Positions 1 through 28,494 are shown, counted from the first letter of the stretch. The stretch is DNA of 64,000 bases from Candidatus Omnitrophota bacterium (GCA_028707125.1 JAQTUX010000001.1:269639-333638), one strand, 5' to 3'. The notes: generated by a model not told the origin, from the letters alone. Translations and numbers: made by a program.

Positions 1-2
1 TA

Positions 3-3000
3 GAGCTGTTTACCGACGACCCGGGGCTTTCAGGCGCGATAGGCGGCGGCGCGGCTACGCAGGAAAGCAGCGGCATCTATCCTCCGGGCCAGGGCTGGAA
101 CACCAACGGCAGCCAGGCAACGGTTACGATGTACACCACAGGCACATACGCGTCAACCGCTCCCCAAAACCGTTCGTATAAGGTGCAGATAGATACGGCA
201 GGCAATACATTTTCCTGGTGGTATATGGACGATACCACCAACTGGACGAATACCGTCGGCGGCAGCGCAGTGGCAATGTCCACCAATTCCGCGGGCACTG
301 ACTTAAACGCCGGGGTCAAGGTGTATTTCAGCGCGGCATCAGGCACTGCCAACGACAGCTGGTATTTCTCCGCCTCAAACGGGACCGCCTATGGCGGGTA
401 TGATTCCTATGCCCAGACAGCCGCCTATACCGCGGGCGAAACAAGGATTTACAAGGACGGGGACCCGTTTTCTCCATATTACAACAAGATGGTATTCCAG
501 AGCGGGGCGACCAAGGTTACCCTTGACCAGCTGGCAGGCACTGTCGCCACCAACGCCACCATCTATAATCCCGCTATTGTCGGCGCCAACTCAGGCGGGC
601 TTACGATGTACAGTTCGGGAAGCTATACCGGTTCCGAGAGCCGCGCGTATCAGGTAAAGATCTCTTCGCAGGGTGTTGCCGGCACAAGCTCTGATAAGTT
701 CCAGTTTAAATACGGCGTCAATGACTGGGGCCCGGTAGGCGGCACAAGCATAACCGGCTCGCAGCAGTCCTTAGGCGACGGTATTTTTATCAGTTTTTCC
801 GAGAGCAACTACACTAACGACGGCACGATCACAGGCGGCAGCTCCTCAAATCCCGACCAGTGGAGCTTTAACGTTGTCGCCGGCTCAACCTCTACCAGCG
901 CCGGCGGCTGGACGGATTCTGGTACAGATGTGTACAGCTCCGCGGTAACCGACAATGTCGCCATTGGTACCACTGTTCCCGGCGGATACAAGTTGAATGT
1001 CAGCGGCACAGCCAACGCCACCACCTTGACAGAAGGCACAAACGCCGTGCCCAACGCAACCGACCACCTCGGCTTCTTTGCCGCAACCACCTCAGCGCAG
1101 CTTGCCGGAGTGCTATCGGATGAAACCGGCTCAGGTGGTGTCGCAGTATTCGCCACATCCCCTACAATCGCCACTCCCATTATTTCAACCTCTGCCACAG
1201 TTCCTCTGGTTATAGGCGGCAGCGCGACCACCAGCGATCTTTCCCTTCAGACCACTTCAGCCGCTGGTGAGGCAGGCGCGGATATGCATTTCCTCGTCGG
1301 CAATAACGGACAGACAGAGGCGATGACCATACTTAATTCCGGCTACGTGGGCATCGGCTCAACTGTCCCCACAGCAGCCCTGGACATAAACGGCAATATC
1401 CAGGTCTCTGGTACCATCACCGGCACCGTTGCCACAGCAGGCGGCTGGACAGACGCGGGCACATCTATGTATCCGACCAATGTGGACGATAACGTGGCCA
1501 TAGGCACAACAGACCCCGGCTCCTACGACTTGAATGTCGCGGGCACAGCCAATATGGGCACTCTATCCATAGGCGGCACTGCAGTCACAGCCAGCGCGAC
1601 AGAACTCAACTTCGTTGACGGGGTAACATCAGCCATTCAGACACAGCTTGATTCAAAGAGCGCGGCAAGCGACACACTTACTGGTTTAGTCCAGTCCACT
1701 GCCGCGGGCACAAGCTACATTACGGGCGGCTCTGTCGGCATCGGGACGACGAGTCCTCAATATTTGCTTGATGTAGACAAATCAGCCACAGGAAACTATA
1801 TTGCTCATATAAAGAATAGCGGGACTGCATCTTACGGGCTTTTTATAGAAGCCGGGACTGATACGGGTGATTATATTGTGAGCGTGGCAAGTAAGACAGG
1901 AAGTAACAAATTTGTAATAAGGGGTGACGGCAACGTCGGTATCGGCACGGTTGCACCAACCGCGCTATTGGACGTCAACGGCACTGCCAATGTTAACACG
2001 CTTTCAATAGGCGACACTACGATCACCCCCACGGCAGCAGAGCTCAACTTCGTAGACGGGGTAACATCAGCCATCCAGACACAGCTTGACGCAAAGGTGG
2101 GCACAAGCACCGCCTTCATAGGCGACGTCACCGGCGCCTACAACGCCACAGTTGTCGGCAACGACTCCCACGACCACACTGCCTCTACCATCTCCGGCCT
2201 GGGCGTCTCTGACTTCACTTCAGCCGCTATCTCCCAGTGGACCAATGACTCCAACTTCATCACCGCGGCAAGCACCATCACAGGGCTCATCCAGTCCACA
2301 GCCGCAGGCACCTCCTACATCACAGGCGGGAGCGTTGGGATAGGCACAGCAGTGCCGGGTGGTAAACTTGATATTTACGCTGACCAAAGCACCGAATACG
2401 CGTTGGTGGCGAGAAACACCGCCGACGCCAACCAGATTACGCATGCCTTTGACGCCAGCGCCGGCAATGCCCTTTTTAGATTGTGGGATGTTAATGGAGG
2501 TTTGAATGTTAATCTAGCTGCCAGTGGAAACAGCTATCTTAACGGCGGCAACGTCGGCATCGGGACGGCAGTGCCGGGTAGCGCATTAGAGGTCCAGGGA
2601 AATGTAACGCTTAACGACCGTTTGATTATGAGCGGTGATAGTATTGGCGCAACTGTTGATACAGCATACAACACGATTAAGGGCGCCATAGGGCCAACTA
2701 TAAACGGCCTAACATTAACCGGGGCATTAGTAGATTCTAACTTTTCAGACGATAATGCAAATATTACAAATGTGTATGGGTTAAAAATAGCAACTGCGGT
2801 TACGGGTCAGTATACTACAACTAATGCCTATGGATTATATGTAGACCAACCCACAGGTGCTACAAATAATTATGGCGCATATATAAACGGCAACCTCATT
2901 GTCTCCGGCACCATCACAGGAACAGTTGCCGCGGCCGGCGGCTGGACAGACGCGGGCACATCTCTCTACAACACCGAGCTGACTGACAAGGTAGGCATAG

Positions 3001-6000
3001 GCACTGCCACTCCTTCCCAGCTCCTGGACGTCAACGGCATTGCTAATGTGAACACGCTCTCCATAGGCGATACCACCGTTACATCCACTGCGGCAGAATT
3101 GAACATATTAGACGGCGTAACAGCCACCGCAACCGAGCTCAACTATGTTGACGGCGTAACATCAGCCATACAAACACAGCTGAACGCCAAGGTAGGTACA
3201 GCCACTTCATTCTCAGGAGACGTGACCGGCGCCTACAACGCCACAGTTGTCGGCAACGACTCCCACGACCACACCGCCTCAACCATCTCAGGGTTAGGCG
3301 TCTCTGACTTCACTTCAGCCGCCATCTCCCAGTGGACCAATGACTCCAACTTCATCACCGCTGCCTCTACCATCACTGGACTGATCCAGTCCACAGCCGC
3401 AGGCACAAGTTACATCACAGGCGGGGATGTAGGCATCGGGACTGCAGTGCCGGGAGAGAAACTTCATGTTTACAAAGAAAGTTTAACTGATAATAGTCAG
3501 GCAAAATTACTCAAGTTAGAAGGGAAGTTTAATGATGCTAGCATAGATAGCGATGATGTAATAGGAATTTCAGTAAAGGCGGTTAACTCTAGTGGGGGAT
3601 CCGGAGAGAATATGATTATTGGTGGCTCATGGGGAGGATCAGCGGTCAATACTTTATTAGCAGTAGATGGCGGCAACGTCGGCATCGGGACGACGGTGCC
3701 CGCGGCGAAATTGCATGTCTCGGCCCCGGCGGTTATTGCCGGCGGGTTTTATTCGGTCGCGGCAAATGACGCTGACGCGGATATCTGGGGTATTTCAACG
3801 ACCTATTATCCATCTCATGGAACAGCAGCCAACCAGTGGGGTATCAAGTGGCAGTCCACGCCGAACGCATTCTCTTTTGTGGGGAATGGCAGCGAGAAAT
3901 TAAACATCGATGTGGATACGGCAGGGCATATTTCGATGGTCGTGAACGGCGGCAACGTCGGCATCGGCTCAGCCGTGCCAGTTGCGAAACTTGATGTTGT
4001 CGGGACTGCCGAAGTGGACGGCCTCTCCATAGGCGGTACAGCAGTCACTCCCACCGCGGCTGAACTCAACTACGTTGACGGCGTAACCTCTGCCATACAG
4101 ACACAGCTTGACGCCAAGGTAGGCACAGCCACTTCGTTCTCAGGCGACGTGACCGGCGCCTACAACGCCACAGTTGTCGGCAACGACTCCCACGACCACA
4201 CTACCTCTACCATATCAGGGCTGGGTGTTGCTGACTTCTCCTCAGCCAACATCTCCCAGTGGACCAATGACTCCGGATATTTCAATACCAGTAACGACGG
4301 CGCAGGCAGCGGTTTGGACGCGGATATGGTGGATGGGTTGCATCCTACGCAATTCTTCAACGCCCACGGTCAGAATCACGGCACATATACGGACTTCAAT
4401 ACGCCTACAGATTTTGGATTTAGATACATTGTGGGTACCACAAACGGCCCTGGCATAGCCGGCGCAAGCCAATACTATAATCTTGGCATAGGGTTAGGTA
4501 ATGATTATGCCTATACAAGTTACGCTATGCAACTGGCGATTCCGAGAAACTTAAGCACTCCATATATATCTGTGAGATATAGAGAGAATGGAGCTTGGGG
4601 GTCGTGGTATAAGATTTATGCCGGATATGCTGATACCGCGGCCGCGCTTTCCAGCATGAACATCAGTCAGTTTACCAATAATTCCGGTTACTTTAATACT
4701 AGTAATGACGGCGCGGGAAGCGGCCTGGATGCTGACCTGCTGGACGGCCAAAGCAGCGCTTATTATATGACTGCCGCAACCGACAATTGGGTGAATACGA
4801 CCGGGGACACGATGAGCGGGAATCTGTATTTCAATAATTATGGGCTGGGAGTCATCGGCACCTATAGTGATATAAGATATCAGGGCGTATTTGCCATGGG
4901 CGATGCTTATAAGCTCGCTCTGGACGGTACGACATCAGGGACTTTATATGGCATTGCCTGGACCCATAGCAATATCGGAGGCCAATCCAAGGCGGGGTTA
5001 AGTCATCAGGCATTGTTTATGACAAATGGCGTGACTCAGACAGCAATAGGAACGGGTATATGGACGCTTGGCGGCTATACGCAAAGCGGGACAAGCACGA
5101 ATGCTTTTATGGGCAGCGTCGGCATCGGCACAGTGGCGCCGGGAGCGAAGCTGCATGTGACAAGCGCCAATACCGGAGCAGGGTTGTTGAGGTTGGATAA
5201 TACCGGTGGTTCAGCCGGGGATGTAAACGGGGTAGATTTTTATCATAATAACGGAACGTATTTACAGGCGTTTATACGCGATGAGATTCTGAGCAGCTGG
5301 CCCACGAAATTACATTTCGGCGTTGCCTCAACGAGCAACAACGCCGCGACAAAGATGACCATACAGGGGTCAAACGGCTACGTGGGCATCGGCACAGTGA
5401 GCCCGGCGGCGCATCTTCAGGTCGGCACAGGCACTCCCGGCTCTGCCACAGGCGCGGGCGACCTGTATGTGGCAAGCGACCTCGAGGTTGATTCCACCGC
5501 CTATCTTGACCTGGACGCGCGGGTAGGCCGCGACTTTATCGGCACAGCCGCCACTTCGTATATGTATATGACCGGCACGCTCACGGTTGACCTGGACAAC
5601 GACAACAATGGTACGGACAAGTTTTCTATAAGGGACGGCGGCAATACCGAGATATTCTACGTGAATGAAGATAACGGAGGCGGAGGCAATGTTGTGGCAA
5701 AGGGAGTCACCGAAGGCTCATACATAGGGTTATTCAAGGGCTTGGGTTCGCTTCCGGGCTACGGCTCCAGCCGTTATCCGACGCTGAAGACGGATTACTC
5801 CTACTTGTATTTCTCCGTTGCCGGCGCGTACTCCGCGTATATGGGCTCTAACGGCGTCCTGACCGCCCAATCCAGCCGCGAGAAGAAGGAGAACTTTAAG
5901 GAGCTTGACTTTGATAATGTCCTGGCAAAGATTGATAAAATGCCGGTTATGGAGTGGAACTACAAGAACGAAGAAGATTCCATAAAGCACATCGGCCCGT

Positions 6001-6179
6001 TTGCCGAGGATTTCCACGCGCTTTTCGGACTGAACGGCACCGATAATACAATGATCGGCCACAGCGACCCTCCGGGCGTTGCCCTCGCCGGCGTAAAAGG
6101 GCTGTATAGGAAGGTGAAGGAGCAGGAGAGGGTGATTGAAGAGCTGGAGACAAGGATAGCGGCGTTGGAGAAGAAGTAA
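3..6179 (+). CDS. Giant Gly/Thr/Ser/Ala-rich fibre-like surface protein (5'-partial; frame open to window start), C-terminal intramolecular chaperone / peptidase S74-like auto-processing domain
   Basis: Single >2000-aa ORF with no stop back to nt 3. Recurring motifs GGWTD(A/S)GT, NVGIGT(A/T)xP, AAELN(F/Y)VDGVTSAIQTQLDAKVGT. C-terminal SSREKKENFKELDFDNVLAKIDKMPVMEWNYK...HIGPFAEDFHALFGL plus coiled-coil tail is typical of tail-fibre/endosialidase C-terminal chaperone domains. Confidence 0.75.
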   Translation, partial: ELFTDDPGLSGAIGGGAATQESSGIYPPGQGWNTNGSQATVTMYTTGTYASTAPQNRSYKVQIDTAGNTFSWWYMDDTTNWTNTVGGSAVAMSTNSAGTDLNAGVKVYFSAASGTANDSWYFSASNGTAYGGYDSYAQTAAYTAGETRIYKDGDPFSPYYNKMVFQSGATKVTLDQLAGTVATNATIYNPAIVGANSGGLTMYSSGSYTGSESRAYQVKISSQGVAGTSSDKFQFKYGVNDWGPVGGTSITGSQQSLGDGIFISFSESNYTNDGTITGGSSSNPDQWSFNVVAGSTSTSAGGWTDSGTDVYSSAVTDNVAIGTTVPGGYKLNVSGTANATTLTEGTNAVPNATDHLGFFAATTSAQLAGVLSDETGSGGVAVFATSPTIATPIISTSATVPLVIGGSATTSDLSLQTTSAAGEAGADMHFLVGNNGQTEAMTILNSGYVGIGSTVPTAALDINGNIQVSGTITGTVATAGGWTDAGTSMYPTNVDDNVAIGTTDPGSYDLNVAGTANMGTLSIGGTAVTASATELNFVDGVTSAIQTQLDSKSAASDTLTGLVQSTAAGTSYITGGSVGIGTTSPQYLLDVDKSATGNYIAHIKNSGTASYGLFIEAGTDTGDYIVSVASKTGSNKFVIRGDGNVGIGTVAPTALLDVNGTANVNTLSIGDTTITPTAAELNFVDGVTSAIQTQLDAKVGTSTAFIGDVTGAYNATVVGNDSHDHTASTISGLGVSDFTSAAISQWTNDSNFITAASTITGLIQSTAAGTSYITGGSVGIGTAVPGGKLDIYADQSTEYALVARNTADANQITHAFDASAGNALFRLWDVNGGLNVNLAASGNSYLNGGNVGIGTAVPGSALEVQGNVTLNDRLIMSGDSIGATVDTAYNTIKGAIGPTINGLTLTGALVDSNFSDDNANITNVYGLKIATAVTGQYTTTNAYGLYVDQPTGATNNYGAYINGNLIVSGTITGTVAAAGGWTDAGTSLYNTELTDKVGIGTATPSQLLDVNGIANVNTLSIGDTTVTSTAAELNILDGVTATATELNYVDGVTSAIQTQLNAKVGTATSFSGDVTGAYNATVVGNDSHDHTASTISGLGVSDFTSAAISQWTNDSNFITAASTITGLIQSTAAGTSYITGGDVGIGTAVPGEKLHVYKESLTDNSQAKLLKLEGKFNDASIDSDDVIGISVKAVNSSGGSGENMIIGGSWGGSAVNTLLAVDGGNVGIGTTVPAAKLHVSAPAVIAGGFYSVAANDADADIWGISTTYYPSHGTAANQWGIKWQSTPNAFSFVGNGSEKLNIDVDTAGHISMVVNGGNVGIGSAVPVAKLDVVGTAEVDGLSIGGTAVTPTAAELNYVDGVTSAIQTQLDAKVGTATSFSGDVTGAYNATVVGNDSHDHTTSTISGLGVADFSSANISQWTNDSGYFNTSNDGAGSGLDADMVDGLHPTQFFNAHGQNHGTYTDFNTPTDFGFRYIVGTTNGPGIAGASQYYNLGIGLGNDYAYTSYAMQLAIPRNLSTPYISVRYRENGAWGSWYKIYAGYADTAAALSSMNISQFTNNSGYFNTSNDGAGSGLDADLLDGQSSAYYMTAATDNWVNTTGDTMSGNLYFNNYGLGVIGTYSDIRYQGVFAMGDAYKLALDGTTSGTLYGIAWTHSNIGGQSKAGLSHQALFMTNGVTQTAIGTGIWTLGGYTQSGTSTNAFMGSVGIGTVAPGAKLHVTSANTGAGLLRLDNTGGSAGDVNGVDFYHNNGTYLQAFIRDEILSSWPTKLHFGVASTSNNAATKMTIQGSNGYVGIGTVSPAAHLQVGTGTPGSATGAGDLYVASDLEVDSTAYLDLDARVGRDFIGTAATSYMYMTGTLTVDLDNDNNGTDKFSIRDGGNTEIFYVNEDNGGGGNVVAKGVTEGSYIGLFKGLGSLPGYGSSRYPTLKTDYSYLYFSVAGAYSAYMGSNGVLTAQSSREKKENFKELDFDNVLAKIDKMPVMEWNYKNEEDSIKHIGPFAEDFHALFGLNGTDNTMIGHSDPPGVALAGVKGLYRKVKEQERVIEELETRIAALEKK
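2030..2345 (+). repeat. Intragenic long repeat copy A (~300 bp, near-identical to copies at ~3125-3440 and ~4050-4270; shorter relative at ~1595-1665)
   Basis: Long DNA stretches re-occur almost verbatim, e.g. caccggcgcctacaacgccacagttgtcggcaacgactcccacgaccaca...cccagtggaccaatgactccaacttcatcacc. Encodes the repeated AAELNFVDGVTSAIQTQLDAKVGT...SHDHTASTISGLGVSDFTSAAISQWTNDSNFITAASTITGLIQSTAAGTSYITGG module. Confidence 0.8.
3125..3440 (+). repeat. Intragenic long repeat copy B
   Basis: Same module as 2030-2345 with a few substitutions. Confidence 0.8.
4050..4270 (+). repeat. Intragenic long repeat copy C (shorter)
   Basis: AAELNYVDGVTSAIQTQLDAKVGTATSFSGDVTGAYNATVVGNDSHDHTTSTISGLGVADFSSANISQWTNDS at protein level; DNA near-identical to copy B. 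Confidence 0.75.
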
Positions 6180-6187
6180 GACCAAAA

Positions 6188-6308
6188 GCGTATATCAGAT
6201 TATCAGTGTGTCAGTTAGAGTTTATCAGTTTATCAGAATATCAGAGAGAATGACCAATGTCCAATTTACCAATGACGAATGAAATCACAATGACTCAAAT
6301 CCCAAATA
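6188..6308 (+). repeat. Left arm of long imperfect inverted repeat; contains a tandem tatcag hexamer array at 6191-6246 and overlaps the 5' end of the four-helix-bundle ORF
   Basis: gcgtatatcagattatcag...tcagttagag...tatcagaatatcagaga...ttaccaatgacgaatgaaatcacaatgactcaaatcccaaata matches the reverse complement of 6656-6769 (ctgcgtatatcagaacatcag...tcagttagag...aattaccaaatcccaatgacgaatgaatgtccaaatcccaatacccaa). Confidence 0.7.
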
Positions 6309-6655
6309 GAAAGTATGATTTGCGGGAGAGAACTGCTAAATTTGGAGAAAACATAGTTAATTTCGCGAAGAGCATACCTGAAAATAGTGTGAATAGGCCA
6401 TTAATAAGTCAGCTAGTAAGGGCAGGTACGAGCGTAGGAGCTAATTATTGTGAAGCAGACGATGCCTCAACAAGGAAGGACTTCTTTTACAAAATTGGGA
6501 CCTGTAGGAGAGAATCAAAAGAGTCTAAGCATTGGCTTAGGATGATAACGACTGCTGTGCCTTCTTTGAAGGCTGAAGCCGAACTGTTCTTAAACGAGGC
6601 TCAAGAGTTAAATTTGATATTTTCCGCCATTATTAATAGGGCCGGAAAACGTTAA
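6257..6655 (+). CDS. Four-helix-bundle protein (23S rRNA intervening-sequence protein family, TIGR02436-like)
   Basis: 132 aa. KYDLRERTAKFGENIVNFAKSIPENSVNRPLISQLVRAGTSVGANYCEADDASTRKDFFYKIGTCRRESKESKHWL matches the family hallmarks (sQL.RA.tSvgaN..Ea....kDF..k..i...E..Et..WL). True start may be one of several in-frame Met (6257-6290). Confidence 0.75.
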   Translation: MSNLPMTNEITMTQIPNRKYDLRERTAKFGENIVNFAKSIPENSVNRPLISQLVRAGTSVGANYCEADDASTRKDFFYKIGTCRRESKESKHWLRMITTAVPSLKAEAELFLNEAQELNLIFSAIINRAGKR

Positions 6656-7709: not shown

Positions 7710-10421
7710 ATGATAACGCTGGAAGACGTTTGGCTGAAATACAGGATAGCGTTCAAGGAAGGCGCGAGGGCCGTTTGCGAGGATTTCTGGGCGCTTAAGG
7801 GCATAGACCTGAATGTCGGCAAGGGAGAGTGTTTCGCGGTCATCGGAGAGAACGGCTCAGGCAAGACCACGCTCCTGAGGGTGATCAGCGGCATGCTAAT
7901 GCCTGACAAGGGCAGGGTGCGCCTGGGAGGAAGGGTCGCCGGGCTTATGGAGATACAGGCCGGTTTCCATCCTGAACTGACCGGCAGGGAGAATATCTAC
8001 AATATCTCGGCGCTTTCAGGCCTGAGCGCCGATGAGACAGGCGCCTGTTACGCGGACATGGTTGAGTTTGCCGCCATCGGCAGGTTCATCAACGCCCCGG
8101 TAAAGACATACTCCCAGGGCATGCTTGTGCGCCTTGCCTTTGCCATAGCCATACACGCGCGCACCGACATATTGCTGGTTGACGACATATTCGCGGTAGG
8201 CGATATTTATGCCCGGCGCAAGTGCATTAATAAGATGTTTGAGCTGAAGGATAAGGGCCTGACCATTATTTTTGTTTCTCATGACCTGGATATTGCCAGG
8301 CGGCTGTGTAAAAGAGGCGTGCTGCTCAGGGAAGGCAGGGTTATCAGGGCCGGTTCAATAGACGGACTCGTCAGTTATTATCTTGAGACGGTAGGCAATA
8401 AGGAAGGTATAGCCCTGCTGCAAAAAGGGCGGCTGGCAATTATTTTTAATAACGGCAAGCTGATCATCAGGTGGAACGACTCCGCTCTTACCAAGGGCGC
8501 GGCCGGGCATACGGTGATGAGCTCTTCGGGCAGGACATATCAGTCAGATACCGCCTCCTGGATTATCCGGCAGCCGGCGGCAGCCGATGAGATCGTTGCC
8601 GTAGGCAGGTGGCCGGATATGCCGGCTGAGCTTATCTGGAAGATACGCTGCCGCGGCGAAAAGGAATTCAGCTGGGATGTAACTCTGCAGGCGCGCGCAC
8701 AGGCCCGGATAGAGGATTACACGGCCAGATTGATCCTGACCGACGAATACGAGGGCTGGTTTACATCGCAGGAGGAATACGTTTTTCCGGAGGCGTTCCT
8801 GCATGAGAACGAATGGCAGAGCCGCCGGATAGACGATCATCTTAACTGGCTGATAGGGTTAAAGACGGGAGCCGATAGCGGCGAAGGCCTGCCAACGCTT
8901 GTTTTAGACAGCTCAGGCGCGGATAAACAGGGCGCCTGCCAGATCGGCAATACCGGCATTGAGGCCTCTGCCAGAGGTATTCAGTTCAATTACGTTAATC
9001 CGGAACCAGAGCATGCCGCGGGCAGCTATAAGTTTTTTTCAACCGGCGTGAAGTTATTTGAGGAGCGGGACAGGCAGGATTTTGAATGTTATATGGCGCG
9101 GGCAAGGCAGGCCGGCAGGCGCAGGATCATCAGCCGCGGCCCGCTCGCCCTGTGTTGCGGGCAGCGCAAAATAGAGATTTTCCTGCGGGATGCGCTTTTA
9201 AGCAGCGGCGCGGGGCTGGATACGAAATTCATCTGGCAGGGCCGTACCTACAGCGCCGCCGGAGGTAACTGGTCCGTAGAAAAAGAAGGAGATAATTATC
9301 TTGTAGTTAATATCTTTTGGGGGCCCGAAGCGCCTTTTTTCCAGGTATGGAGAATGGAACTGCGGGATGAGTCCGCCATTTTCTGGCAGGCGGATATGGA
9401 AATAAGAGATGGGCTGGAGATCAGGAACAGGCAGGTTGAGCTTTTTCTCAGCGGCCGATATGACAGGTGGTTTACGCCTTCGGAAAACGGCGACTTTGGG
9501 GCAGTGGAAAAAAAAGGCAACACAGTCATACTAAGTAAATACATAAACGATTTTTCCGGCGTAGAACAGTCCTGCCTTATGCCGGCGGTTACCTTCGCCA
9601 ATCAAGACGGCCGCGCCAGAGTGTCGTATATTTCCCGGGGCCAGGACAAGGAATTAAATACGAAGCTGCATTATCTGGAGATAGATCCCGCCGCTGACGC
9701 GGCGCTTGAAGCAGGCAGGCACGCCTTTTTTAAGGGGGCCATAAGGATAGCGCCCAGGCAGGGACAAAAAGGCGTTGACGCGGTTGTCAATAATAACGGC
9801 GCGGCCGCGGCGATAAATTTTAACGGCGTTTCTCTGGATTTCAGGCACGGCAGGATGCGTCTTTTCTATGAAGGCGTTGAATTGACAAAAGGGCTGGGCC
9901 TTTACTCTGCGGTTTTGCATGAAGGCAACTGGCATGATTCTTCGCAGGGACTATGGAAGGTCGAGGCCTCGGACAGGGAAAGGTTCGTCGCCGTGGGCCG
10001 CTGGCCGTGGCTGCCTGTCAGGCAGGAATGGGAAGTAACGCTATTGGATGGCCGCGATATCATCTGGCGCATAACCAGGGATACCCGGGACGGCTTTGAT
10101 CCCGACAAGGAGCAGGTTAACCTGATGCTGTCGGATAATTACCGGGAGTGGTTTGTCCGGGAAAGGGCGCGGGGAAGGTTTCCCGAAGAGTTTGCCGAGC
10201 ATACCCGCGGCGGGTTCTGGGAGCGGTTATGGTCGGCGGCAGCGCAGTCGCCGGTCGGCGCCAAAGGGCCTGGGCTGCCGTCTGTCCTCCTGGACTGTTC
10301 AGAGAGCCCGGTTCCCGGCCGCCTGTGCATTGAGAACACGGACGCGTTATTCAAGGCCAGGGTCCTGCAGTGCGAATCGGCGCAGCAAAAACATTTTAGC
10401 GGAAAGATAAAGATATGCTGA
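7710..10421 (+). CDS. ABC transporter ATP-binding protein (Wzt/TagH-like) with ~650-aa C-terminal extension of repeated Trp-rich beta domains
   Basis: Walker A GENGSGKTTLLRVISG, signature-like YSQGMLVRLAFA, Walker B ILLVDD. C-terminal 650 aa carry three related ~110-aa units, e.g. VAVGRWPDMPAELIWKIRCRGEKEFSWDVTLQ...YEGWFT / FWGPEAPFFQVWRMELRDESAIFWQADMEIRD...YDRWFT / VAVGRWPWLPVRQEWEVTLLDGRDIIWRITRD...YREWFV. Confidence 0.8.
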   Translation: MITLEDVWLKYRIAFKEGARAVCEDFWALKGIDLNVGKGECFAVIGENGSGKTTLLRVISGMLMPDKGRVRLGGRVAGLMEIQAGFHPELTGRENIYNISALSGLSADETGACYADMVEFAAIGRFINAPVKTYSQGMLVRLAFAIAIHARTDILLVDDIFAVGDIYARRKCINKMFELKDKGLTIIFVSHDLDIARRLCKRGVLLREGRVIRAGSIDGLVSYYLETVGNKEGIALLQKGRLAIIFNNGKLIIRWNDSALTKGAAGHTVMSSSGRTYQSDTASWIIRQPAAADEIVAVGRWPDMPAELIWKIRCRGEKEFSWDVTLQARAQARIEDYTARLILTDEYEGWFTSQEEYVFPEAFLHENEWQSRRIDDHLNWLIGLKTGADSGEGLPTLVLDSSGADKQGACQIGNTGIEASARGIQFNYVNPEPEHAAGSYKFFSTGVKLFEERDRQDFECYMARARQAGRRRIISRGPLALCCGQRKIEIFLRDALLSSGAGLDTKFIWQGRTYSAAGGNWSVEKEGDNYLVVNIFWGPEAPFFQVWRMELRDESAIFWQADMEIRDGLEIRNRQVELFLSGRYDRWFTPSENGDFGAVEKKGNTVILSKYINDFSGVEQSCLMPAVTFANQDGRARVSYISRGQDKELNTKLHYLEIDPAADAALEAGRHAFFKGAIRIAPRQGQKGVDAVVNNNGAAAAINFNGVSLDFRHGRMRLFYEGVELTKGLGLYSAVLHEGNWHDSSQGLWKVEASDRERFVAVGRWPWLPVRQEWEVTLLDGRDIIWRITRDTRDGFDPDKEQVNLMLSDNYREWFVRERARGRFPEEFAEHTRGGFWERLWSAAAQSPVGAKGPGLPSVLLDCSESPVPGRLCIENTDALFKARVLQCESAQQKHFSGKIKIC

Positions 10422-27498: not shown

Positions 27499-28494
27499 TT
27501 GATTATGCGCGCCGCTTACGATAGACCGCGTTTTTGCGACCTCGTCGTCACGGAGAACTGCATGTTGAGATGCCGGATGTGCAGGATGTGGCAGAGCAGG
27601 GCCGGAGGCGATGAGCTGCCCGTCGACGCATGGAAAGGGTTTATCGATTCCTTCGCGGATTTCGCGGGCGGCAATGCCCAGGTGCAGTTTGTCGGGGGAG
27701 AGCCGCTGCTTAAAAACGGGATAACAGGCCTTATCAGCCATGCCCGCAGCAGGGGGCTGGCAACCACCATGACCACCAATGCCTATCTTTTAGACGGGAA
27801 GGCATCCGGTGATATCGCGCTTTCAGGGTTGGGCACGCTGGTCCTGTCGCTGGACAGCCTGAAGGCGCAGGTCCACGATTTTCTGCGGGGACAGGCAGGC
27901 GTCTACGCGAGGGTAATGGCGGCACTGGATTTCTTCAGCAGGCACAAGGATGATCGCCCCCGCCTGCATATAGTCACCACCATAATGCAGCCGGATTTAG
28001 ACGGTGTCCTGGAGCTTGCCGAATGGGCAGAGGCCAACAGGGCGATAGACGCCATAAGTTTTCAGGCGGTGATGCAGCCATTTTTCATGCCGCCGGATGA
28101 TGCCTGGCATGAGAGAGAAGAGTTTGCCTTATTATGGCCGAAGGATGCGGAAAAAATTGACGAGGTCATGGACGGGCTTATACGCCGTAAACGTTCCGGT
28201 TTTAAGATAACCAACCCCGCGGCGCAGTTTGAGGTTTTCCGGTCTTATTTCAAAGACCCCCGGAGATTTGTGAAGGCCTCAAGATGCAATCTGGGGTATG
28301 ACTCGCTGACGGTGAATACGGCAGGCGGCATATTCCTGTGTAATTCAATGGAGCCCATAGGGAATATACGCGACGGGGCGGATATCGCGGAGTTATGGCA
28401 TTCAGAGAAGGCCGAACTCGTAAGGAAGCAGATCGGCGACTGCCGCCGCAACTGCAAGCTTATGATCAACTGTTTTTTTGACGATGAAGGATAA
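27499..28494 (+). CDS. Small MoaA/twitch-like radical SAM paralog 10
   Basis: PRFCDLVVTENCMLRCRMCRMW; VGGEPLL; LSLDSLKAQVHDFLRGQAG; CRRNCKLMINC. Confidence 0.8.
   Translation: MIMRAAYDRPRFCDLVVTENCMLRCRMCRMWQSRAGGDELPVDAWKGFIDSFADFAGGNAQVQFVGGEPLLKNGITGLISHARSRGLATTMTTNAYLLDGKASGDIALSGLGTLVLSLDSLKAQVHDFLRGQAGVYARVMAALDFFSRHKDDRPRLHIVTTIMQPDLDGVLELAEWAEANRAIDAISFQAVMQPFFMPPDDAWHEREEFALLWPKDAEKIDEVMDGLIRRKRSGFKITNPAAQFEVFRSYFKDPRRFVKASRCNLGYDSLTVNTAGGIFLCNSMEPIGNIRDGADIAELWHSEKAELVRKQIGDCRRNCKLMINCFFDDEG

Follow-up and report, generated by a model that had tools for sequence, protein, structure and literature searches.

Does a very long protein that ends like a phage tail fiber belong to a virus or to the cell that carries its gene? 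The question is raised by a 64,000-nucleotide stretch of DNA from Candidatus Omnitrophota bacterium (GCA_028707125.1, JAQTUX010000001.1:269639-333638), referred to here as the window. At its left end is a fiber gene whose reading frame extends beyond the 5′ edge, can be followed from base 3 and closes with a stop codon at 6177-6179 after 2,058 codons. A preliminary description of this DNA had taken the product for a giant tail-fiber-like protein in a non-prophage context and had proposed that it was a domesticated cell-surface fiber or adhesin. In our assessment, the window quite probably encodes the distal 2,058 residues of a secreted, tail-fiber-like cell-surface protein, with the architecture of the S74 subgroup of the mosaic adhesive trimeric (MAT) fibers of Bdellovibrio, whose most likely role is to grip prey or host cells.

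The only database protein that is 100% identical to the translated frame is MDD4909316.1 (P0001), 3,008 aa long and encoded on a 1,261,957-bp contig of a Candidatus Omnitrophica metagenome-assembled genome (MAG). Its NCBI title is [quoted passage not shown], and it is a new, exceptionally long example of a fiber class that has been published and is already annotated automatically. Residues 1-950 lie outside the window and were taken from the database entry, so that window residue n corresponds to protein residue n + 950. The protein contains no cysteine in its 3,008 residues, and glycine, threonine, alanine and serine together account for 45% of them.

Signal peptide, N-terminal domain and cellular surroundings

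The preliminary description had suggested looking upstream for the true N-terminus and a secretion signal. In the database entry, the protein opens with MNAKRIDLSKVFILSLLSLLLSSIFWNSSFA, followed after the predicted cut by APP. The n-region of this segment is basic, its hydrophobic core spans 16 residues without charge, and S-F-A stands before the predicted cut, with small residues at positions -3 and -1. Judged directly from the sequence and not by a dedicated predictor, the segment has the look of a classical Sec signal peptide and lacks a lipobox.

Behind the signal peptide is a domain of ~130 aa (the N-domain, aa 32-160) that is marked by conserved INYQGKLT..., W-T-E and D-G-E-M-S-P-R motifs and matches no Pfam family. 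At the protein level, its relatives were found only in proteins of Omnitrophota and Patescibacteria. A scan of 185,579 genomes, one per species, with the single pattern DGEM[ST]PR.. gave 457 confirmed genomic loci, the best 80 of which belong to Omnitrophota, many classes of Patescibacteria, two Nanoarchaeota and a few others; no Bdellovibrio locus is among these 80. In most of the loci examined, the N-domain directly follows a signal-peptide-like start, in proteins that range from 226 to more than 3,500 aa, and two patescibacterial examples (L047 and L050) have the whole architecture of signal peptide, N-domain, GNVGIGT fiber and S74 domain. The same pattern found no relatives in 2.9 million IMG/VR contigs, and tblastn with the N-domain gave no match in 50,697 phage genomes. 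The breadth of this family in ultrasmall lineages seems to be under-described.

Many Omnitrophota also encode conserved mini-proteins of ~226-240 aa that carry the N-domain (L025, L037, L043, L045, L053, L054, L057, L061, L062, L067, L070, L072, L075, L076 and L080). The two that were read, L072 and L075, contain, besides a signal peptide and the N-domain, only a short linker and a hydrophobic helix that closes the C-terminus with KKK. Such a mini-protein looks like a membrane-anchored stump of the fiber base.

The surroundings of the gene are cellular as far as they were seen. The statement in the preliminary description that no phage structural, integrase or lysis genes lie nearby was borne out for the 58 kb downstream, in which no phage genes were found. 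This region instead encodes a 23S rRNA IVP protein, an ABC-2 permease, a 903-aa TagH/Wzt-like ATPase, radical S-adenosylmethionine (SAM) proteins, GDSL-TPR proteins and glycosyltransferases, and further on a Wzy_C-TPR protein, a sugar transferase, a GT39 protein and a U32 peptidase. Relatives elsewhere are found in similar company. The closest relative of the S74 domain (P0045) is a 255-aa secreted mini-version encoded between riboflavin-synthesis genes and DNA ligase, and the genes for three giant homologs (P0002, P0033 and P0005) are flanked by cellular housekeeping genes.

The S74 domain and the modular shaft

The C-terminal ~130 aa had been assigned in the preliminary description to the Peptidase_S74 or intramolecular chaperone auto-processing (ICA) domain of phage tail spikes and endosialidases, an assignment upheld by hidden Markov model score, catalytic motif and fold. 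Pfam family PF13884, which has a gathering cut-off of 22 bits, matched window residues 1957-2008 with an E value of 2e-9 and 38 bits when the whole fragment was searched, and scored 8e-11 and 42.5 bits against the last 159 aa. The first residues matched are exactly those of the SSREKKENF segment given earlier as the start of the domain, but the length given with it was too great: from S2907 to K3008, the domain comprises 102 aa. The segment S2907-S-R-E-K-K2912 aligns with the catalytic SDxRLKENI motif of 12 homologs, with S-[DS]-x-x-x-K intact. An “SDxxxK” motif is the criterion by which Caulton et al. recognized S74 ends (PMC10769870).

An AlphaFold2 (AF2) model of the last 258 aa, made as a single chain with 18 homologs, was confident only in its S74 part, where the predicted local distance difference test (pLDDT) values are 84-97. 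A heptad coiled coil had been placed at the very end of the protein; the model agrees as to a helix and predicts one long helix there. When the model was compared with the PDB by Foldseek, places 1-11 were all taken by ICA/S74 chaperones, led by that of MyRF (7DC3; E 4e-4, prob 1.0) and followed by 3GW6 (endosialidase) and 3GUD (GA-1). Modeling of the chain in isolation keeps the TM-scores modest (TMt 0.51-0.54 for 7DC3). Against BFVD, there were 42 viral matches at E ≤ 1e-3, most of them named S74, ICA, endosialidase chaperone or tail fiber. A sequence profile of the domain also matched the MyRF ICA (E 1.3e-3, best) and the L-shaped tail fiber of phage T5, and tblastn with the domain found 25 phage genomes at 27-40% identity.

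The second hallmark of the protein is a repeat that the preliminary description had written as GxxVGIGTxxP and likened to the β-helical shafts of phage fibers. Its core, [VLIA]G[IVL]G[TS]xxP, is present in 15 copies over the whole protein, compared to 0.016 copies in composition-preserving shuffles. The 13 copies in the window are made up of 11 cores and two “VAIGTTxP” variants, and the full protein has 17 copies. At the DNA level, the repeat appears as a family (D2) with a 50-nt unit and 10 copies. A phmmer search of the PDB matched stretches containing it to Bd2133 (8OND) and Bd3182 (8OJN, identified by Table S2 of PMC10769870) at E ~2e-3. Suppl. Fig. 18 of PMC10769870 gives this motif as a capping loop of 14 residues, with NVGIGTTAPTAKLE among its forms, in Bd3182, Bd2133, Bd1334, Bd0884 and MyRF; the general MAT version is V-G-x-x-T-x-x-P-x-x-x-L. 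Because this motif is shared, the repeat is identified, by sequence, as the edge-capping loop of the MAT/S74 β-helix. The earlier observation of the repeat thus stands and gains a name.

The rest of the shaft is built from units of several kinds (Table 1). Every copy of the ~130-aa shaft unit contains ELNxVDGVT and an H-D-H triplet, and parts of the unit match a phage tail fiber (52%) and mycobacteriophage minor tail proteins. In a search of 50,697 phage genomes with the shaft, 79 records with tail fiber or minor tail annotations were matched, each over 3-20% of the query, so that the claimed likeness to phage fibers holds at the level of short shared modules. The proximal part, aa ~200-1460, to which the two β-rich modules belong, is shared with four other giant homologs from Omnitrophota (P0002, P0003, P0004 and P0005) that align at 35-56% identity, whereas the distal part is not common to them. 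Homologs that share the proximal half but not the distal part fit the “tip swapping” of MAT fibers. Pfam gave nothing above threshold for the two β-rich modules (aa 986-1266), and for the N-terminal 950 aa and the distal 527 aa it gave only sub-threshold matches to CBM_4_9 (E 0.013) and DUF5110.

Two modules, A and B, stand out in the distal part. An exhaustive HMMER search with aa 2380-2660 (window 4290-5132) gave 2,472 cluster representatives at E ≤ 1e-3. Each module is matched without the other and often recurs within one protein, up to 16 times; the proteins reach 4,810 aa. Judging from these matches, A and B are widespread, independently shuffled units of large fiber-like proteins. Module B is 37% identical to tail fibers of the Vibrio phages Thalassa, VPG01 and VPT02. 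Neither module has a relative in the PDB by phmmer or profile search or belongs to a Pfam family. By its sequence matches, the fiber is a mosaic whose modules are also passed around among the receptor-binding proteins of phages.

Table 1. Features of the fiber gene and its product. Nucleotide positions are those of the window; residue numbers are those of MDD4909316.1.
Feature	Position (nt)	Strand	Residues (aa)	Basis or remark
Fiber gene, 3′ two-thirds	3..6179	+	951-3008 + stop	100% match to P0001
Two related β-rich modules	108..950	+	986-1110, 1150-1266	Internal BLAST, 27% identity, E 2e-6
Capping-loop motifs (G-x-V-G-I-G-T-x-x-P-x-x-x-L), 13 copies	957..5405	+		Regular expression compared to shuffles; 50-nt DNA repeat
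Capping-loop core starts	957, 1347, 1494, 1734, 1935, 2334, 2553, 2991, 3429, 3678, 3957, 5118, 5382	+		Regular expression
Shaft unit of ~130 aa, 4 copies (ELNxVDGVT ... GNDSHDHT ... ISQWTNDS ... GGxVGIGT)	1560..4307	+		Protein self-BLAST; DNA repeat families D1, D3, D4
Shaft-unit copies	1560-1775 (partial, 41%), 1998-2387, 3054-3479 (82%), 4023-4307 (78%)	+		Self-BLAST
Distal module A	4335..4652	+	2395-2500	HMMER
Distal module B (GDTMSGNL...YGIAWTH...GIWT)	4785..5102	+	2545-2650	HMMER
Conserved “neck” (GSLPGY..YPTLKTD..LYFSV.G.YSAYM)	5685..5870	+	2845-2906	Directly before the predicted cleavage site; 43-59% identity to the closest S74 relatives, P0045-P0051
Peptidase_S74/ICA domain	5871..6176	+	2907-3008	Pfam, motif alignment, AF2, Foldseek, profile matches
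Predicted nucleophile	5871-5873	+	Ser2907	Motif alignment
Predicted general base	5886-5888	+	Lys2912	Motif alignment
Long terminal helix, 36 residues	6066-6173	+	2972-3007	AF2, pLDDT 92-97

Comparison with MAT fibers and proposed mode of action

The closest described counterparts are the MAT fibers of Bdellovibrio bacteriovorus (Caulton et al. 2024, PMC10769870). In these, a signal peptide precedes a β-rich N-domain of ~130 aa that is conserved across the group, and 13 of the 21 members have an S74 end. They are displayed on the cell surface and bind glycans; one of them, Bd2439, binds the O-antigen of Proteus. Structures of another, Bd3182, are available (PDB 8OJN, 8ONB and 8ONC), and an S782A mutation stops its self-cleavage. 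The docking partner of the MAT N-domains is stated explicitly to be unknown. Among the MATs of “predator-associated lifestyles”, Table S3 of the same paper already lists an “S74-like” protein of 713 aa from Omnitrophica (A0A2H0LB00).

Like the S74-subgroup MATs such as Bd3182, the Omnitrophota fiber starts with a signal peptide, directly behind which lies a ~130-aa domain that is conserved among its own relatives. It shares with them the long shaft with VGIGTxxPxxxL capping loops and the C-terminal S74 domain with S-D/S-x-x-x-K, and in both cases the gene is chromosomal and non-prophage, as judged for the Omnitrophota fiber from its downstream side. Bdellovibrio lives off other cells, as is predicted for Omnitrophota. 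However, MATs are typically ~1,000 aa, and the Omnitrophota fiber is three times longer, comes from a different phylum and adds a CBM-like insert, four ~130-aa HxH-containing units and the distal modules A and B. The Bdellovibrio MATs have been studied experimentally, whereas the Omnitrophota fiber is known from its sequence alone. The suggestion that the protein is a domesticated surface fiber or adhesin is supported; the class to which it is assigned had already been described in the form of these MAT fibers (PMC10769870).

Other systems resemble it in part. The ICA fibers of phages (K1F endosialidase, 3GW6; GA-1 neck appendage, 3GUD; T5 pb1, 8HQZ) have the same S74 fold and catalytic motif, and phage tail-fiber and minor-tail proteins share modules with the shaft, but the Omnitrophota protein differs from them in its Sec signal peptide, in an N-domain that has no viral relatives and in the lack of phage genes in the neighborhood seen. 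MyRF, whose ICA is the best match both in structure and by profile, also has one capping loop; it is a eukaryotic transcription factor of the endoplasmic reticulum membrane and is related through the shared domain only. The giant proteins of Omnitrophota (West-Roberts et al. 2023; PMC10066038) come from the same phylum and are likewise very large, secreted or surface-located and proposed to act in attachment. They differ in being 20,000-85,000+ aa long and in having transmembrane helices and SecA-like, dockerin and peptidase C39/S8 domains. Membership in this group of >20-kaa proteins was rejected because of the difference in domain content. Neither West-Roberts et al. 2023 (bioRxiv 10.1101/2023.11.21.568195) nor Seymour et al. 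2023 (PMC10066038) mentions S74 or tail-fiber-like proteins, and no paper joining S74 with Patescibacteria was found in the literature.

A mode of action can be proposed from these comparisons. The precursor would be exported by the Sec pathway, for which the signal peptide is seen in the sequence. The N-domain would then anchor the base of the fiber on the producer's own envelope, a role suggested because its position behind the signal peptide is kept in most of its relatives examined, at hundreds of loci, and it does not occur in the viral collections searched. Following the phage and Bdellovibrio paradigm, the S74 domain would align three chains and nucleate an intertwined β-helical shaft, the edges of which would be closed by 13 or more VGIGTxxPxxxL capping loops. 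The S74 domain, with its motif intact, is predicted to cleave itself at Ser2907 with Lys2912 as the base. This would leave a mature fiber of residues 32-2906, a mosaic of phage-like modules, to bind structures on the surface of prey or host cells, most likely glycans. Bd3182 has been modeled as a fiber of ~550 Å (PMC10769870). Scaled from the ~760 mature residues of Bd3182, counted from its S782 site, the Omnitrophota fiber would be ~0.2 µm long, or about one nanobacterial cell diameter, by rough extrapolation.

The binding of surface glycans on prey or hosts appears to be the most likely role because Bd2439 binds O-antigen, because S74 proteins of phages bind or cut polysaccharides and because a predatory or parasitic life is predicted for Omnitrophota. 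Their large proteins have been proposed to be adhesins and also to degrade cell-surface polysaccharides (PMC10066038). A receptor-binding function is further suggested by the modules that match phage receptor-binding proteins. The nanobacteria of Omnitrophota and Patescibacteria are abundant, have for the most part not been cultured and are believed to live attached to other cells or at their expense, and little is known of how they recognize these cells. A protein family with a cell-specific base, swappable phage-like modules and a self-cleaving folding domain is a concrete candidate for host or prey recognition, and the work on Bdellovibrio MATs, with its cleavage assay, glycan arrays and tip structures, supplies an experimental template for it.

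The downstream radical-SAM array and competing explanations

The region downstream of the fiber gene contains a feature that is more unusual than the fiber itself. Between positions 10415 and 62890 of the window, the + strand carries 25 radical-SAM genes, all with CxxxCxxC intact and with stops and starts that mostly overlap. Just over half of them (13) are paralogs of the radical-SAM plus SPASM type, ~330-390 aa long, with the motif CxLRC[RK]MC and a mutual identity of 36-45%; the others include two B12-binding, two TPR-fused and two large ones (556 and 1057 aa). Four GDSL-lipase plus TPR genes are interspersed in the array, and a glycan block in its middle encodes GT1, GT2, Wzy_C-TPR, Bac_transf, DUF362, methyltransferase, GT39/PMT_2 and Peptidase_U32 proteins. 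NCBIfam gave only sub-threshold similarity of the array genes to NirJ, AhbD, GeoRSP and peptide maturases, and a literature search turned up no description of an array of this kind.

A similar array fills a contig from the Hainich H43 groundwater metagenome (ERZ1292640; L086, 1-18691, listed together with L087) end to end. Eight open reading frames of L086 belong to the 13-paralog family, the best match being 58% identical to window 27499-28494, and other CxxxCxxC proteins accompany them. The array is therefore a recurring system that is present in at least one other organism. A further locus, from an Omnitrophota-like MAG (L072, 7345-12569), has in sequence an integrase, a tRNA-Phe, a 238-aa N-domain protein, a small membrane protein, a GDSL-TPR gene and a radical-SAM-SPASM gene, the last two being 35% and 41% identical, respectively, to genes of the window. 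The 238-aa protein has a signal peptide, the fiber N-domain and a C-terminal membrane helix.

Several points weigh against the reading of the protein as a prey- or host-gripping surface fiber. A PHROGs search gave one short, meaningless match, and NCBIfam gave no informative match for the protein as a whole. The AF2 confidence in the monomer is low outside the S74 domain, with a pLDDT of 50 for module B and <50 for the modeled shaft, so that the β-helix is not supported structurally. The likeness of the N-domain to that of the MATs is one of position and size. A chain of ~290 kDa would need passage across the outer membrane. Trimerization, self-cleavage, surface display and the ligand are all inferred, and the genomic context was read on the downstream side only.

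This last point, together with an S74 domain and several shaft modules shared with phage tail fibers, is what could be said for a virion tail fiber or tailspike that belongs to a prophage, a tailocin or a contractile injection system, the remaining genes of which would be found upstream of the window. To our knowledge, virion fibers assemble in the cytoplasm and have no signal peptide, whereas this protein has one of the Sec type. Its N-domain, which occupies the position at which a virion fiber would be attached, has 457 cellular loci and not a single relative in the phage genomes and viral contigs searched. With the 58 kb of downstream DNA free of phage genes and the four relatives amid housekeeping genes, such an origin is extremely improbable. 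The prophage reading was rejected on the grounds of the Sec signal peptide and the cellular N-domain, and the description of the context as non-prophage is supported. A tailspike-like depolymerase that degrades the surface polysaccharide of prey, comparable to an endosialidase, is also very unlikely. Endosialidases are where S74 domains were first found, degradation of polysaccharides has been proposed for the Omnitrophota giant proteins (PMC10066038), and aa ~640-950 give the sub-threshold CBM_4_9 match (16 bits, cut-off 25.9), but nothing belonging to a glycosidase, lyase or esterase family came up over the full 3,008 aa in searches of Pfam, NCBIfam and PDB sequences.

The protein might instead be a general surface fiber that is not aimed at prey or hosts and serves for attachment to particles or a biofilm matrix, as a spacer or as a protective coat. 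The same evidence for secretion and fiber architecture would apply, no ligand can be identified from the sequence, and MAT-like proteins are also found in bacteria that are not known as predators (Table S3, PMC10769870). We consider this unlikely, although worth keeping in mind: the N-domain is concentrated in ultrasmall, host-dependent Omnitrophota and Patescibacteria and two Nanoarchaeota, the distal modules resemble phage receptor-binding proteins, and the characterized relatives bind prey glycans. More doubtful still is the idea that the fiber works with the downstream cluster, comprising the ABC-2 exporter, the 25 radical-SAM genes, the glycosyltransferases, a Wzy_C ligase-like protein and GT39, the product of which would either form the docking element of the N-domain or decorate the Ser/Thr-rich fiber. 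PglL-type (Wzy_C) and PMT-type (GT39) enzymes can glycosylate proteins. Fiber gene and cluster are on one strand, with no terminator-like site on the + strand from the fiber stop to the exporter, and both of the arrays with a visible upstream edge, those of the window and L072, have an N-domain gene in front. However, two cases are few, a 278-nt gap with a promoter-like site precedes the exporter gene, and none of the 83 other N-domain or fiber loci has an array gene within a distance of 10 kb. The closest giant homologs and the closest S74 relative are likewise found in unrelated contexts. In its widest form, this idea would make the N-domain, capping-loop and S74 “tail fiber” a common possession of ultrasmall host-dependent Omnitrophota, Patescibacteria and even Nanoarchaeota that sets host range and is here coupled to a surface-polymer pathway with 25 radical-SAM genes, whose product docks the N-domain or decorates the fiber; this, too, we regard as improbable. 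A general association between the N-domain and radical-SAM arrays was rejected, as it was seen in 1 of 84 loci.

A few minor features of the neighborhood may be added. Directly behind the fiber gene, 78 nt past its stop, window 6257-6655 encodes a 132-aa four-helix-bundle protein (23S_rRNA_IVP/TIGR02436), and the same pair of fiber end and 23S_rRNA_IVP gene is present on a Logan contig (L001, run SRR22315508). The 903-aa ABC ATPase is encoded at 7710-10421; its first ~230 aa match ABC_tran, TagH or Wzt, and the remainder is a ~650-aa C-terminal extension with no Pfam match. In Wzt-type exporters, C-terminal extensions recognize the end of the polymer. The fiber gene itself has a GC skew of -0.05 to +0.05 (window 1-6000), compared to +0.05 to +0.18 over the remaining window on the same strand, while the G+C content of the two is alike. 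The difference in skew is likely caused by the Thr/Ala/Ser/Gly-rich composition of the fiber.

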